From the IMG/VR virus record IMGVR_UViG_2541047174_000021: a stretch of 6,653 nucleotides of DNA; one strand, 5' to 3'. A model generated the notes under the pieces. That model made no database searches. It was not told the origin of the DNA and was given only the letters and a program-made list of their open reading frames with translations. A program made the translations under genes and the position numbers. Of this stretch, positions 1 through 6,457 are shown piece after piece (within the stretch, counting starts at the first letter, position 1; every line of letters starts with the position of its first letter). Source of the DNA: a virus (Duplodnaviria; Heunggongvirae; Uroviricota; Caudoviricetes).

Positions 1-13
1 CGTTGGTTAGCTA

Positions 14-232
14 TTAACGTGGGTATGTAATCATTCTGGCAATGCTTAATGCCGCTGCTTTTTCCAGATTGGTGATATCCTGCTCCAGAGCGGACAGATT
101 TTCAGCCTGCTTAGCCCTGGCTTCATTGGCCCATTTCAGATCCTGCGCTGCCTTAATTTTCTGGTGCATCCACTCATAAAGTTCATCATCGGTATAGTCT
201 GGCGCGATGATGACGGGGTCTCGTTTCTGCAT
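14..232 (-). CDS. Small prophage early-left-operon protein, 72 aa, probably coiled-coil (YdfC-like by size and position)
   Basis: ATG at 232 is preceded on the minus strand by AAGGAG about 6 nt upstream (plus 238-243, ctcctt). Same strand as and downstream of the dicA-like gene, as ydfA-ydfB-ydfC follow dicA in K-12 Qin; K-12 YdfC is also 72 aa (recalled, not aligned). Charged, heptad-like sequence. Confidence 0.6.
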   Translation of the reverse strand: MQKRDPVIIAPDYTDDELYEWMHQKIKAAQDLKWANEARAKQAENLSALEQDITNLEKAAALSIARMITYPR

Positions 233-304
233 GTCGGCTCCTTGTGGTTAGCGTTGCCTGCTTTTTAACCACGTCAGGCGAGGTGGTATCCTCTGAGGGG
301 TCTG

Positions 305-604
305 TTACTCGAGAGGAAATTGGTTATGAATACAATCAAGTTTTCTTGCCCAGAATGTGGTGGCTAAGTCTTTGACACATCCTTTAAGCCGCAGGGCTCT
401 GACAGTTTCGCGGGAGCCATCTGCAAAAATTGTGGTCACCTTGTAACTGAAGATGAGTCCTCGCAGTTCGATGACGAAATCGTTGACAATATCTTCGGTG
501 CACTCACCAGAGACTTTCTGAAGTAAAGGCGCATACCGCTTAGTTACCGCTCTGATAACTCTTACCTGTCCGGCAATGGCGCTGATATCAATATAAAGCG
601 CCAT
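305..604 (-). CDS. Hypothetical protein, 99 aa, unknown function, in leftward early operon
   Basis: ORF-track frame. It stays open upstream to a stop at 743-745, but no in-frame ATG/GTG/TTG lies upstream of the ATG at 604. Weak Shine-Dalgarno. Co-oriented between the repressor and the 72-aa gene. No family recognised. Confidence 0.4.
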   Translation of the reverse strand: MALYIDISAIAGQVRVIRAVTKRYAPLLQKVSGECTEDIVNDFVIELRGLIFSYKVTTIFADGSRETVRALRLKGCVKDLATTFWARKLDCIHNQFPLE

Positions 605-739
605 CGCTGTTTCTTTGCTGATCCCTGGACGCCTTCCATTCTGATGTTTGACTCGCCCACTGAGAAATCCTCTGCTTCCCCTTAACGCCGGGTAGCGGAA
701 CTGTTTGCTGAGAACACCGTGCGGTGTCTTGATGAGTAG

Positions 740-800
740 AATTTAGAATAGCCTAAGAGTTATGGTCAAGCTTTTTGTGTAGAAAAACCTAAGCTTCTTG
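740..800 (-). promoter_or_regulatory. Putative promoter with operator-like CTTAGG motifs for the leftward early operon
   Basis: On the minus strand: TTGACC (plus 764-769), an 18-nt spacer, then TAAATT (plus 740-745). Two CTTAGG motifs (plus 752-757 and 788-793) match the motif repeated in the dicA/dicC intergenic region. The minus-strand 13-mer CTTAGGTTTTTCT nearly equals CTTAGGTTTCTCT at 1301-1313. Confidence 0.25.
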
Positions 801-804
801 ATGT

Positions 805-838
805 AAAAAACACAAGTATTTGAAAGTTTGTGCTTTTT
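805..838 (-). terminator. Weak candidate intrinsic terminator downstream of the dicA-like gene
   Basis: Inverted repeat CACAA (811-815) / TTGTG (828-832) with a 12-nt loop. The plus-strand A-run at 805-810 gives a U-tract for the minus-strand transcript. Short stem, so low confidence. Confidence 0.25.
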
Positions 839-867
839 ATTACAGAGAGTTGCGAAAAAAAGGGGGG

Positions 868-1275
868 TTATTTATTTGCGCTTCTTTTGCGAGCTTTGAG
901 TAGTTCTTCAAAAAGTTTGTTGAAATTCTCAACTCGAGCACGCATCTCTGACAACAGAGCCTTTTGCTCTGACTCAGGCAGTGCGTCGAACAGTTGAAGC
1001 AACTCTTTTTGATCTTCTGTCAGATTGACTGGCTGATTATCTGGGATCGGTTCGCCTGGTTGCTTATCTTCATCTCCAAAAAGAAGCCAAGTCGGCGAGC
1101 ACTGAAGCGCCTGGCTCAGTGCGAATAATCTCTTCCCCGCTGGCTGTGTTTCATCTCTTTCCCATTGAGAAATTGTTACGTGAGCCACTTTGACCAGCTT
1201 ACCTAATGCGGCCTGAGACAGTTTTAATTTTTTTCGCCTGTATAAGAGGCGAGCACCGAAGGTTTCGTTTTTCAT
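868..1275 (-). CDS. dicA: DicA-like XRE-family HTH repressor (cI/c2 analogue), 135 aa
   Basis: 135 aa, the same length as E. coli DicA. Helix-turn-helix region (LSQAALGKLVKVAHVTISQWE) plus blocks I recall from DicA (LQCSPTWLLFGDEDKQP; EMRARVENFNKLFEELLKARKR). Divergent from a DicC-like gene. Confidence 0.85.
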   Translation of the reverse strand: MKNETFGARLLYRRKKLKLSQAALGKLVKVAHVTISQWERDETQPAGKRLFALSQALQCSPTWLLFGDEDKQPGEPIPDNQPVNLTEDQKELLQLFDALPESEQKALLSEMRARVENFNKLFEELLKARKRSANK

Positions 1276-1351: not shown

Positions 1352-1579
1352 ATGTTGAAAATTGATGCTATAGCGTTTTTTGGCAGCAAAACAAAGCTTG
1401 CCAATGTCGCAGGAGTTAGGCTGGCAAGCGTTGCTGCATGGGGGGAACTGGTTCCTGAAGGTCGCGCGATGCGCCTGCAAGAGGCATCCGGCGGGGAACT
1501 TCAGTACGACCCCAAAGTTTATGACGAATATCGTAAGGCAAAGCGGGCGGGGCGGTTGAACAATGAAAATCACCACTGA
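1352..1579 (+). CDS. dicC: DicC-like Cro-type regulator, 75 aa
   Basis: Size, divergent arrangement with the repressor, and recalled similarity to E. coli DicC (GSKTKLA, VPEGRAMRLQEASGGELQYDPKVYDEYRK). Confidence 0.85.
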   Translation: MLKIDAIAFFGSKTKLANVAGVRLASVAAWGELVPEGRAMRLQEASGGELQYDPKVYDEYRKAKRAGRLNNENHH

Positions 1580-2114
1580 ACAGGTTTGTGAGGCTCTGGA
1601 TACCTGGGTATGCCGACCAGGAATGACACAGGAGCAGGCGACGATATTAATCACGGAAGCATTCTGGGCTCTGAAAGAACGCCCGAACATCGATGTTCAA
1701 CGCGTCACGTTTAATGATGGCGAGGTTGATCAACGGGCGCTGGGCGTTAACCGGGTGAAGATATTCGAACGCTGGAAAGCTATCGACACCAGAGATAAGC
1801 GTGACAAATTCACGGCGCTGATTCCGGCAATTATGGAGGCTATCCGGATCAGCGATTTCAGATTGTATTGTGAAATTACTGACGGAAAAAGCATTACGTA
1901 CATGATCGCCGGGTTAAACAAAGAATATGGCGATGTGGTGGAGTCCGGGCTGCTTTTTGCGGATCCAGTTGTTGTGGAACGTGAGACTGACGAGCTTATA
2001 GAAAAAGCTATTGCTTTCAAGCACGCGTATCGTCAGCAATACCAATATTACTTTGCAGATAAACAAATGTCTGCCAGGGGGGCGTATGAGTATCGATGCA
2101 CTACGATGGGCTAA
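1563..2114 (+). CDS. Prophage early protein at the cII position, 183 aa (possibly YdaT-family regulator)
   Basis: Immediately follows the Cro-like gene; its ATG overlaps the dicC 3' end by 17 nt and its 3' end overlaps the next gene's start. The YdaT-family assignment is a weak recollection (IPAI-containing segment), not verified. Confidence 0.55.
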   Translation: MKITTEQVCEALDTWVCRPGMTQEQATILITEAFWALKERPNIDVQRVTFNDGEVDQRALGVNRVKIFERWKAIDTRDKRDKFTALIPAIMEAIRISDFRLYCEITDGKSITYMIAGLNKEYGDVVESGLLFADPVVVERETDELIEKAIAFKHAYRQQYQYYFADKQMSARGAYEYRCTTMG

Positions 2115-4509: not shown

Positions 4510-4956
4510 CGCGATAACGGTCAAAAATTATGGCGCTGACACTTTTGTGCCACTGGAGATGACTGTACCTAAGTTCAGGGGAGAAGAACACGTCCGGTGG
4601 GATGGTCGGGCCAGATTTAAAGGGCAGGTCATGGCTCCAGCCTGTACGCTGGCAATGGAGGCTGCCTGGCGGGAAATTGATATGGGAACCACGCCACTCA
4701 GGGATTTACTGCCGGTCCAGAGAATAAATTCCTGTTACGGTTACACCACTGTGATCTTGCAAGTGCAGGAAAGTAGGTCTACACGGTAACGCGAGTGCGT
4801 GTAACTTTTGATGTCATTCCCGTAGAAACACCGGACAAATTTTCGCTGACAGGTCATGCAGAAGGTATAAATCTGCAGATTATGGACAATTACGGATATC
4901 CGGCAAGAGCCGGAAAAAGCATGCCGCCTCTAATTCTCAGTGGAAGATGGACTTGA
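4478..4956 (+). pseudogene. Fimbrial (chaperone-usher pilin) subunit-like remnant, frameshifted and 3'-truncated
   Basis: Frame 2 (4478-4789) has GRARFKGQVMAPACTLAMEAAWREIDMGTTPLRDL, matching the pilin N-terminal pattern F-x-G-x-V-x3-C...L-G-x-V (compare FimA GTVHFKGEVVNAACAV...VQLGQV, recalled), with a second Cys about 30 residues on. Frame 1 (4777-4956) continues with VTFDVIPVETPDKFSLTGHAEGINLQIMDNYG, like FimA GVQILDRTG. No in-frame signal peptide, at least one frameshift near 4775-4790, and it ends at the AT-rich boundary. Confidence 0.35.
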
Positions 4957-5015
4957 TTATACTCATTGCATTGTCAGAAATAGTTATCCATTAAAGGCTG
5001 GCTATTCCAAACAGG

Positions 5016-5043
5016 ATGTTGATTACAAAAATGTAATCAACAT
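5016..5043. promoter_or_regulatory. Perfect inverted repeat (12-bp arms, 4-bp spacer) upstream of the binding-protein gene; candidate operator
   Basis: ATGTTGATTACA (5016-5027), AAAA, TGTAATCAACAT (5032-5043), arms exactly reverse-complementary. Sits in the AT-rich region about 165 bp before ATG 5208. A perfect TATAAT is at 5070-5075. Confidence 0.3.
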
Positions 5044-5207
5044 GTAAGGTTTATACTCTTCAATATGCGTATAATTTTCCTTATTTTGTTGACTTTAAAT
5101 AACAAGCTATGCACGAGGTAAAGTCGGATAAGTTTATCTGGATGTAATATATATTATTTGTAGTGTTTATAACTTTATTTCATGATAACCAATAAAAGGA
5201 GTTTTTT

Positions 5208-5966
5208 ATGAGGAACATAATGGCAGGTTTTTTAATATTCCTGTCTTCTGCTGCTTATGCTGATATCAATCTGTATGGTCCTGGTGGCCCGCATACAGCC
5301 TTGCTTGATGCAGCCAAACTTTATGCCGAAAAAACAGGTATTATAGTGAACGTTCATTACGGCCCACAGAACAAATGGAATGAAGATGCCAAAAAAAATG
5401 CAGATATCTTGTTTGGCGCATCAGAACAATCTGCTCTGGCTATCATTCGGGACCATAAAGACAGCTTCAGTGAAAAAGATATTCAGCCTCTTTATCTGCG
5501 AAAAAGTATTTTACTGGTAAAGAAAGGTAATCCTAAAAATATCCGGAGTATTGACGACCTGACCAGACCTGGGATTGGCGTAATTGTTAATGATGGTGGT
5601 GGTACCAGTAATACATCAGGCACTGGCGTCTGGGAAGATATTGCCGGACGTAAAGGGAATATAGAAACTGTCGCCGCAATCCGAAAAAATATTATTTTAT
5701 ATGCGCCCAATAGCGGAACTGCACGTAAGGCTCTTGAGAATCAGCCTGGAGCAGATGTCTGGATAACCTGGGCTGACTGGGCAGCCAGTAATCCAGAAAT
5801 TGGTGATGTCGTGGAAATAGCGCCAGACTACGTGATATGGCGTGATATGAACATTACAGTACGTCAGGATGCAAATGATGAAACCCGTCGATTTGCAGAA
5901 TGGCTACAAACCGATGAAGCGGCGCCTGCATTCAAAAAATATGGCTGGACCAGGAAAGGCACTTGA
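5208..5966 (+). CDS. Secreted periplasmic substrate-binding protein, ModA-like (molybdate/tungstate-type fold), 252 aa, orphan
   Basis: SD AAGGAG (5195-5200) 7 nt before the ATG. Signal peptide MRNIMAGFLIFLSSAAYA, then DINLYG. Architecture parallels E. coli ModA (recalled): ADILFGASEQ versus ADLFISADQ, C-terminus AAPAFKKYGWT versus AAEIFKRYGFT. AT-rich codon usage unlike the phage module. No permease or ATPase gene nearby. Confidence 0.75.
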   Translation: MRNIMAGFLIFLSSAAYADINLYGPGGPHTALLDAAKLYAEKTGIIVNVHYGPQNKWNEDAKKNADILFGASEQSALAIIRDHKDSFSEKDIQPLYLRKSILLVKKGNPKNIRSIDDLTRPGIGVIVNDGGGTSNTSGTGVWEDIAGRKGNIETVAAIRKNIILYAPNSGTARKALENQPGADVWITWADWAASNPEIGDVVEIAPDYVIWRDMNITVRQDANDETRRFAEWLQTDEAAPAFKKYGWTRKGT

Positions 5967-6109: not shown

Positions 6110-6179
6110 GCGAAAACGGTTTGCTGTAACGGCAGAGTTAAGTAGGATTGCTGCGGGTGCTTGAGGCTATCTGCCTCGG

Positions 6180-6255
6180 GCATGAACACCAACGGCAGAT
6201 AGATAAAAGCCCCACCCGACTATAAATCGAAGTGAGGCCCCTATATGCTCGTCAC
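6180..6255 (-). ncRNA. sok: Putative Sok-like antisense RNA (approximate bounds)
   Basis: By analogy with hok/sok loci, the antisense RNA covers the mok SD/start (SD GAGG 6233-6236, ATG 6245). A minus-strand TTGACC -35 candidate is at plus 6283-6288; I found no convincing -10. Ends not determinable from sequence. Confidence 0.3.
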
Positions 6256-6457
6256 ATATAGATTGCCTCTTACGGACCGAAAGGTCAAGGAGAAGCAGGC
6301 TATGAAGCAGCAAAAGGCGATGTTAATCGCCCTGATCGTCATCTGTTTAATCGTCATAGTGACGGCACTGGTAACGAGGAAAGACCTCTGCGAGGTACGA
6401 ATCCGAACCGGCCAGACGGAGGTCGCTGTCTTCACAGCTTACGAACCTGAGGAGTAA
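6245..6457 (+). CDS. mok: mok-like reading frame (in-frame upstream extension overlapping hok), 70 aa
   Basis: ATG 6245 with SD GAGG (6233-6236). Reads MLVTYRLPLTDRKVKEKQA then the Hok sequence, the same layout I recall for chromosomal MokC/MokB. The region from about 6153 closely parallels the plasmid R1 hok mRNA leader (recalled). Confidence 0.5.
   Translation: MLVTYRLPLTDRKVKEKQAMKQQKAMLIALIVICLIVIVTALVTRKDLCEVRIRTGQTEVAVFTAYEPEE
6302..6457 (+). CDS. hokD: Hok-family type I toxin (HokD/RelF-like), 51 aa membrane peptide
   Basis: MKQQKAMLIALIVICLIVIVTALVTRKDLCEVRIRTGQTEVAVFTAYEPEE: Hok family signature, near-identical to my recollection of E. coli K-12 HokD (RelF). SD AAGGAG (6287-6292). 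Confidence 0.9.
   Translation: MKQQKAMLIALIVICLIVIVTALVTRKDLCEVRIRTGQTEVAVFTAYEPEE

Follow-up and report, generated by a model that had tools for sequence, protein, structure and literature searches.

In Escherichia coli K-12, the dicBF operon of the Qin prophage runs ydfA-ydfB-ydfC-dicF-dicB-ydfD and is repressed by DicA/DicC (PMC5069750). We analysed positions 14-867 of a 6,653-nucleotide (nt) stretch of a caudoviricete genome (IMG/VR virus record IMGVR_UViG_2541047174_000021), and the whole of that stretch is called the window here. The window is the immunity/early-left region of a Qin-like prophage integrated at ompW in E. coli O157:H7: its positions 1-1300 are 99.8% identical to the ompW-adjacent prophage of O157:H7 strains such as TW14359, with partial matches to them in 3942 of 5426 complete genomes of the species. 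Positions 14-867 are the start of a presumably DicA-repressed early-left (dicB-type) operon of the Qin prophage family, in which a 443-bp two-strand cassette has taken the place of ydfA and ydfB. On the minus strand the cassette carries an open reading frame (ORF) of 99 codons, named ORF99, and on the plus strand, wholly nested within it, an ORF for a predicted Cys4 zinc ribbon. The explanation that we favour, and regard as reasonably probable, is that of an early-left dicB-type operon with a cassette whose two frames are both under selection, the zinc-ribbon gene being dead in this particular copy.

Much of the locus resembles the K-12 operon. As in K-12, a DicA-family repressor gene (NF007257, 241.6 bits against a cut-off of 101) is accompanied by a divergent DicC-like Cro gene (NF007282, 167.6 bits against a cut-off of 130), and a putative repressor-controlled promoter lies downstream of dicA, followed by a leader that is 95% identical to its K-12 counterpart. 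In TW14359, a match to the dicF RNA, dicB, a DUF1482/ydfD homologue and an exonuclease gene follow further downstream. The two loci differ in that ydfA and ydfB are absent here, in that the repressor is only 63% identical to K-12 DicA and the operator sequence is another one, and in that an extra 135-amino-acid (aa) ORF lies between ydfC and dicF. Along the minus strand, the predicted order begins with a sigma-70 promoter and its two DicA-type operators and continues with the 60-nt leader, the 443-bp cassette and ydfC.

An earlier inspection of the letters and their ORFs, made without database searches (the sequence-only reading), had placed these positions in a leftward early operon downstream of a dicA-like repressor, and the NF007257 match and the pattern of a repressor-controlled promoter bear this out. 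It had also supposed the whole ydfA-ydfB-ydfC slot to be replaced, which proved true of ydfA and ydfB only. When the window was compared with the K-12 dicB operon by blastn, positions 2-232 and 676-734 alone aligned, with no DNA similarity to ydfA or ydfB between 232 and 676; the replacement is thus limited to these two genes. The 72-aa ORF that had been taken for a novel gene in the place of ydfC, and whose strong Shine-Dalgarno sequence (SD) had been correctly seen, is ydfC: its product shares 96% of its residues with K-12 YdfC, and nt identity over window 2-232 is 97%.

A predicted antisense zinc-ribbon gene inside ORF99

The cassette and the gene that follows it contain these features:

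233-675: cassette replacing K-12 Qin ydfA-ydfB, between the conserved leader and the ydfC ATG
305-604, minus strand: ORF99, 99 aa, isoelectric point (pI) 8.9, co-directional with the early-left operon; distant homologues share the core ATG at 604
326-526, plus strand: Cys4 zinc-ribbon ORF of 66 codons (ECs_2282 family), wholly nested in ORF99, with the SD GAGAGGAA at 311-318
256-292, plus strand: conserved non-coding element of ~40 nt, GCCTGCTTTTTAACCACGTCAGGCGAGGTGGTATCCT, upstream of the zinc-ribbon ORF
562-660, minus strand: out-of-frame ORF of 32 codons starting at GTG660, with the SD AGAGGA
14-232, minus strand: ydfC, 72 aa, with the SD AAGGAG at 243-238, 6 nt before the ATG

With codon 14 restored, the product of the plus-strand ORF scored 57.3 bits on NF047912 ("ECs_2282 family putative zinc-binding protein"; cut-off 37), and a Klebsiella homologue scored 50.5 bits on the same model. 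The start, the stop and four Cys are kept from E. coli to Serratia, an SD precedes the ATG in each lineage, and the length is 66 aa in most lineages and 62 aa in Serratia. The four Cys (CxxC...CxxC) are invariant across all homologues, zinc binding being a prediction. The protein has a C-terminal helix and a markedly low pI of about 4.1, and matches to TFIIB-like and Elf1-like ribbons were below threshold. The prototype of the family, ECs_2282 of the Sakai prophage Sp12, sits in the same locus type, with a repressor, PaaA2/ParE, the antisense ECs_2282, ydfC (ECs_2283) and dicB. The window copy differs from the members of NF047912 by a nonsense mutation at codon 14 and hence has no annotation. 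The family description makes no mention of nesting inside a second conserved ORF, and ECs2282 was not mentioned in the papers of the literature searched.

In the window the ORF reads MNTIKFSCPECGG, then a stop, then VFD..., with TAA at codon 14 (365-367); the zinc-ribbon gene is a pseudogene here (E14 to TAA). This TAA is the complement of the ORF99 codon for Leu80 (TTA), where other copies have Phe80 (TTC) and therefore Glu14. The exact 55-mer containing TAA was found in 516 complete genomes, and the GAA version or close variants of it in 851. The two coexist in many O157:H7 strains, where the ompW copy is broken and the Sp12 copy intact. Among 79 IMG/VR loci, the zinc-ribbon ORF is intact in 61, interrupted by E14* in 17 (with at least four haplotype backgrounds) and by E44* in one. 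The latter change (CTC to CTA) is silent in ORF99, and E14* is the missense change F80L there.

ORF99 lies where the sequence-only reading had put it, at 305-604, but does not lack a recognisable family: it matches phrog_21318 (function unknown) with E = 4.6e-67 over residues 1-99 of 99, and in O157:H7 TW14359 it is annotated by RefSeq as WP_001240336. Homologues with 57-98% identity occur in E. coli, Klebsiella and Citrobacter, and the family is basic throughout (pI 8.9-9.7). A profile made from the ORF99 alignment returned only 11 matches from 1.84 billion proteins, all of them of the same family, and nothing was above threshold in Pfam, NCBIfam, PADLOC and PDB-sequence searches of ORF99. 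AlphaFold predicted a helix-helix-hairpin-helix fold (predicted local distance difference test, pLDDT, 71.8) that had no match in the PDB or BFVD. The position of ORF99 had suggested an N-like antiterminator or a CII-like regulator; neither was retained, with no Arg-rich motif, helix-turn-helix (HTH) or family match. In Citrobacter prophages (L021/L022 4995-5519, minus strand), ORF99 continues in frame from an upstream gene of ~77 aa, the two together forming a 174-aa ORF, and this upstream gene stands separate in a related metagenomic contig (L028 5298-5531, minus strand).

Most E. coli copies of ORF99 are called as 118 aa, from an upstream GTG, and GTG660 is the in-frame start of this form in most E. 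coli-type copies. A 1-nt deletion in the window (gcgaAgtc to gcgagtc) near position 653 puts GTG660 out of frame; among the IMG/VR haplotypes, the extension reads "VGEVKH..." in most and "SGRVKH" in the window type. Counting this frameshift allele by 55-mers gave ambiguous numbers, since megablast is also seeded by the other allele. After the deletion the 99-codon core remains, with a weak SD, and this core and ydfC are all that is intact in the window copy.

RefSeq names the 72-aa gene ydfC (WP_001171903). YdfC matches phrog_1744 (function unknown) and had no match in Pfam, PDB or PADLOC, and the ydfC papers searched give no native function. Searches with ORF99, the zinc ribbon, YdfC and the 135-aa neighbour gave no significant match to the defence and toxin-antitoxin models of PADLOC, Pfam and NCBIfam. 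The expectation of two uncharacterized genes in the slot holds insofar as no product has a function-giving match, but the slot is ORF99 with a nested antisense zinc-ribbon ORF, which had been missed. Similarly, profile hidden Markov model and structure searches led to no well-characterised function, but they did lead to families (phrog_21318 and phrog_1744) and to the identity of ydfC.

The annotation of the cassette flips between strands. RefSeq gives a 99-aa hypothetical protein in some genomes and, in others, a 66-aa ECs_2282-family protein on the opposite strand. The Prokaryotic Genome Annotation Pipeline (PGAP) annotates the zinc ribbon, and not ORF99, wherever the zinc-ribbon ORF is intact, and the switch hangs on a single nucleotide polymorphism (in L012, L013, L014 and TW14359). 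In a collection of metagenome-derived proteins, 575 members fall in the cluster of the 118-aa ORF99 and 85 in that of the zinc ribbon. Calls that switch strand in this way imply that the embedded gene is systematically under-called. Metagenome gene callers mostly keep the longer ORF and, taken together with the RefSeq flip, each of the two families is under-counted in protein databases.

Selection on the two strands

In the overlap, the first codon position of one frame pairs with the third of the other, and the second with the second, so that substitution patterns tell the two frames apart. The comparison covered prophages of E. coli, Klebsiella, Citrobacter, Enterobacter and Serratia. Two E. 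coli-type variants (L012 and L015) differ by 15 synonymous and 6 non-synonymous changes in the zinc-ribbon frame, the corresponding numbers in the ORF99 frame being 3 and 18, and omega among E. coli-type variants was 0.08-0.13 for the zinc ribbon versus 0.7-1.8 for ORF99. When sites were partitioned in the manner of OLGenie, zinc-ribbon dNN/dNS was 0.08 within E. coli types and 0.18 (confidence interval 0.10-0.31) between distant lineages. This substitution pattern, together with the kept start, stop and Cys and the SD, indicates that the antisense zinc-ribbon gene is real and dominates the evolution of the overlap; judged from the same comparison, its frame is the more constrained partner.

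These data bear directly on the idea of one ordinary early-left gene, ORF99, with an antisense ORF that is open by chance, as the sequence-only reading assumed and as RefSeq annotates this genome. That idea draws on the RefSeq entry for ORF99, on the interruption of the antisense ORF in the window and on the better AlphaFold confidence of ORF99. However, changes that are synonymous in ORF99 and non-synonymous in the zinc ribbon proved about three times rarer than the reverse (p 0.10 versus 0.32); a single ORF99 gene would lead one to expect the contrary. Nor does a chance frame fit with an antisense start, stop, SD and four Cys that are kept from E. coli to Serratia, or with an antisense protein that scores above the NF047912 cut-off. 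Contradicted already by the substitution pattern, the single-gene idea is in our view very improbable.

ORF99 carries signals of its own, both outside and inside the overlap. In the 25-26 codons outside (527-604), substitutions are conservative in the ORF99 frame only, with permutation P <= 0.0004 in most inter-lineage pairs, and none of five control frames over the same segment was significant in the permutation test. Pooled pS there was 0.67, pN 0.29 and dN/dS 0.22, with 24, 23 and 50 changes at codon positions 1, 2 and 3. The start position is common to the lineages, with strong SDs in Klebsiella and Citrobacter. Every lineage keeps ORF99 free of stops along the whole zinc-ribbon gene, as do all 79 IMG/VR loci. 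Of lineages simulated under selection for the zinc ribbon only, 33% kept this frame open after 27 substitutions; as the tree carries 149 changes or more, P is roughly 0.002. Neither frame uses TTA, CTA or TCA in the overlap, the window's own TTA excepted. Finally, the codons chosen at zinc-ribbon synonymous sites give ORF99 residues with a mean BLOSUM62 score of 0.86, versus -0.2 to 0.05 for random choices (P <= 0.0007, kappa 1-8).

An OLGenie-like dNN/dSN ratio was also considered as evidence for ORF99 and rejected, because a zinc-ribbon-only null gives the same value. Purifying selection was detectable in both frames of this antiparallel pair, dNN/dSN alone being explained by the null. From these comparisons, both strands are probably coding. 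As for the coding signal that the 99-aa ORF was expected to show in related prophages, ORF99 does have one outside and inside the overlap, but the dominant signal of the overlap belongs to the other strand.

If only the zinc-ribbon gene were real, ORF99 would be a shadow ORF, lying in the frame in which an antisense ORF is least readily interrupted and called either for its length or because the zinc ribbon is broken. Overlap substitutions that follow the zinc-ribbon frame, a dNN/dSN that the null model reproduces, an ORF99 that is highly variable among E. coli types where the zinc ribbon is almost invariant, the PGAP calls of the zinc ribbon wherever it is intact, and an ORF99 product without fold or family match of known function are all what a shadow ORF would give. 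By contrast, a shadow ORF would not be expected to evolve as coding, and in that frame only, over the 25-26 codons outside the overlap (dN/dS 0.22; 24/23/50), to keep its start with strong SDs in distant lineages, to stay open at all 79 loci and in every lineage, or to bias the zinc-ribbon synonymous sites to ORF99-conservative codons. We consider this explanation unlikely.

The translation of ORF99 could matter even if its product did not. Ribosome transit over the 370-nt cassette might prevent Rho-dependent polarity on ydfC-dicF-dicB, or strip or occlude the antisense gene, and selection would then keep the frame open and initiation efficient. Such a role would suit a frame that is always open while its sequence is free to vary within E. 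coli types, a start that shifts between GTG660 and ATG604 among lineages, and a promoter-proximal position in a long polycistronic operon. It would leave unexplained the inter-genus amino-acid conservation of the N-terminal segment of ORF99 (BLOSUM-based P <= 0.0004; dN/dS 0.22), as well as the ORF99-conservative choice at zinc-ribbon synonymous sites, and we find it quite unlikely that translation is all that counts.

Several observations weigh against selection on both frames of the cassette, the explanation that we prefer. For ORF99, the dNN/dSN of 0.35 inside the overlap is fully reproduced by the zinc-ribbon-only null model, the sequence varies freely within E. coli types, where the N-terminal constraint is non-significant (P = 0.14-0.28), and the structure prediction is only moderate (pLDDT 72) and without a fold match. 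For the zinc ribbon, the AlphaFold model is poor (pLDDT 55), too low for a fold search, and the putative promoter is weak by consensus and below the threshold of the promoter scan. The zinc-ribbon gene is, moreover, broken in 18 of the 79 IMG/VR loci, with the nonsense allele in 516 complete genomes, and alleles that common imply that it is dispensable in many prophages. The pairwise selection tests use related sequences, so that their P values are non-independent, and a search of the EDL933 transcription start site supplement found no sequence matching the cassette.

Regulatory region, settings and neighbouring genes

Upstream of the cassette, towards the repressor gene, the window contains the following:

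605-867: spacer of 263 bp between ORF99 and the DicA-family repressor gene
868-1275, minus strand: DicA-family repressor gene, 135 aa
804-839, minus strand: terminator-like hairpin after the dicA-like gene, with arms 839-828 and 815-804 forming an inverted repeat that is 92% complementary, then a T run
740-793, minus strand: putative early-left promoter from the promoter scan, with -35 TTGACC (769-764), an 18-nt gap and -10 TAAATT (745-740)
757-744, minus strand: operator-like site CTTAGGCTATTCTA, of the form CTTAGG-N5-CTA, overlapping the -10
793-780, minus strand: operator-like site CTTAGGTTTTTCTA, of the same form
676-734, minus strand: conserved dicB-type operon leader, 95% identical to the 60 nt directly upstream of K-12 ydfA
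727-714, minus strand: 5'-proximal leader hairpin ACACC-GCAC-GGTGT, read from the sequence

The 263-bp spacer with promoter-like elements had been rightly recognised before, and its TTGACC-18-TAAATT promoter with operator-like motifs lies downstream of the DicA-family repressor gene. Three more copies of CTTAGG-N5-CTA occur at 1276-1342, between the dicA-like and dicC-like genes, and the motif is enriched, with 6 matches versus 0.92 expected and none of 200 shuffles reaching 6. A sigma-70 promoter combined with this enrichment fits a repressor-controlled early-left promoter with putative operators. The hairpin at 804-839 may act as a terminator, and the leader hairpin may act as a stabiliser. 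A query containing the leader found matches in 2748 of 5426 complete E. coli genomes, mostly to the leader alone, and 937 of them cover at least 80% of the query; the leader is a standard part of dicB-type operons, whatever the first gene.

On the other side of the cassette, the element at 256-292 contains an extended -10-like TGgTATCCT (284-292), which is TGgTATCYT across lineages, and interleaved inverted repeats GCCTG/CAGGC and ACCAC/GTGGT. It is kept in E. coli types, Citrobacter, Enterobacter, Klebsiella michiganensis and Serratia despite differing flanking genes. A reading of the element as RNA structure was dropped, as RNAalifold gave no covariation and Rfam no match. These motifs suggest that the element may serve as promoter or operator of the zinc-ribbon gene.

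The cassette was found in three settings. In E. coli it follows the dicB-type promoter, sometimes with toxin-antitoxin modules inserted between repressor and cassette; in Klebsiella and Citrobacter prophages it comes directly after cro; and in Citrobacter, Enterobacter, K. michiganensis, Serratia and one metagenomic contig it lies in the PL region beside a CI-type repressor. In an Enterobacter prophage, the zinc-ribbon gene stands directly after a SieB-family gene on the same strand. In all three settings, ORF99 runs along the early lytic operon and the zinc ribbon against it, within a few hundred bp of a repressor-controlled promoter. A scan of species-representative genomes found Serratia sp. 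L9 as the sole member; weak zinc ribbons of Rhizobium and Sinorhizobium from the same scan were not counted.

Related prophages carry HigB/HigA-like or PaaA2/ParE pairs between the repressor gene and the leader or cassette (L010 5057-5721, L017 2031-2509, L019 3604-4081 and L030 6052-6523), and this junction is a hotspot for small modules.

Under the two-gene explanation, the ORF99 and zinc-ribbon genes would converge, facing a repressor-controlled early promoter, and the immunity switch would make their expression mutually exclusive; the convergent geometry and the conserved orientation are what suggest this. In a lysogen, with P(dicB) repressed, only the zinc-ribbon gene would be expressible, and its transcript would be antisense to leaky early-left RNA. 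Once that promoter is derepressed, the zinc-ribbon gene would be occluded or silenced by polymerases reading through ORF99, ydfC, dicF and dicB. One step further, the cassette might be a conserved mobile "strand-switch" module of enterobacterial lambdoid prophages, in which an acidic zinc ribbon and a basic alpha/beta protein, encoded on opposite strands of the same ~200 bp, would be expressed in the lysogenic and the derepressed state, respectively. The products or the antisense RNAs would then act against each other, be it in the choice between lysis and lysogeny, in immunity to superinfection or in keeping DicF/DicB toxicity in check. We put the strand-switch module forward as a tentative proposal only, possible but on balance doubtful.

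In TW14359, whose prophage is 99.8% identical, the gene order is ompW, int, xis, exonuclease, DUF1482 (ydfD-like), dicB, an unannotated gap with the DicF match, an opposite-strand 77-aa ORF, the 135-aa ORF, ydfC, the 99-aa hypothetical gene and the HTH repressor gene, followed divergently by a Cro/CI regulator, YdaT, replication genes, paa and hokD. A dicF-like match and an annotated dicB thus lie left of the window, in agreement with the earlier view that both would be found left of position 14. The dicF copy, outside the window in TW14359, scored 43.5 bits on Rfam DicF (E = 1.6e-7), under the gathering score of 48. It lies at L001 4989-5038 on the minus strand, ~960 bp left of window position 1, and escapes detection with default thresholds; beside it is a weak match (32.5 bits) to STnc100.

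Downstream of ydfC, the 135-aa ORF (L001 5584-5991, minus strand) converges with the 77-aa ORF (L001 5373-5606, plus strand), their 3' ends overlapping by 23 nt. Both are hypothetical genes, kept in several related prophages (also in L019 and in phage Evi, L115), and the 77-aa ORF is another opposite-strand early-left gene. On the other side of the repressor, a YdaT-family "toxin" gene (window 1563-2114, plus strand) follows the DicC-like cro, its start and stop overlapping the neighbours, a position that is usual for the YdaS/YdaT-type arrangement of Qin/Rac-like prophages. Further along, window ~4514-5047 (plus strand) corresponds to a fimbrial protein pseudogene of RefSeq in TW14359, frameshifted and with an internal stop, and appears as several short ORFs in the window. 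A 252-aa ORF (5208-5966, plus strand) has the position of RefSeq paa (AcfC family adhesin Paa), a virulence-associated moron. A hok/sok-type type I toxin-antitoxin locus occupies 6155-6304 and 6245-6457 (both plus strand); its Rfam sok match (103.9 bits, gathering score 59) overlaps a 70-codon mok/hok-type ORF, and RefSeq has hokD there in TW14359.

Comparison with other antisense systems

The lambda/P22 gene sieB is a prophage gene that runs against the early-left operon and is expressed in the lysogen, lambda oop/cII is a case of antisense control, and the "excludon" idea belongs to the same field. The zinc-ribbon gene likewise points against the early lytic operon near the immunity region. 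Neither sieB, oop/cII nor the excludon has a sequence relationship to the cassette, and the expression of the zinc ribbon in the lysogen and its antisense effect are predictions. As regards the protein, Lar/Ral-type restriction-alleviation zinc ribbons are likewise small CxxC...CxxC proteins from the early-left region of lambdoid prophages. Membership in that group was rejected, the matches to TIGR03655 (15.7 bits, cut-off 39.6) and phrog_6422 (E = 0.0098) being sub-threshold.

Few antiparallel, fully nested protein-coding pairs in bacteria and phages have good support, and many of those reported are contested. In enterohaemorrhagic E. coli (EHEC), abstracts describe the antisense overlapping pairs ano/ECs2385 (PMC5960689) and pop/ompA (PMC7103648), asa (PMC6294744) and three more (PMC9927249). 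There, too, a protein-coding ORF is embedded antisense within another ORF in E. coli O157:H7. As summarised in those abstracts, the EHEC pairs rest on RNA-seq, Ribo-seq and phenotypes, and they are young, taxonomically narrow ORFs inside well-established genes. The cassette differs from the pairs so described: all the evidence for it comes from sequence comparison, conservation is stronger in the embedded gene, and both partners are kept across genera. Among titles and abstracts on EHEC antisense overlapping genes, none concerned the cassette locus.

For the biology of EHEC, the cassette is a further uncharacterised element, lying immediately upstream of the dicF/dicB module. The pair is small, is kept across several genera at a defined regulatory position, and comes with natural single-frame knockouts (E14* and E44*), which makes it a tractable test case. 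Set beside these systems, the cassette is an antiparallel nested gene pair, of a known but rare kind, and a clear case of strand-flipping annotation.

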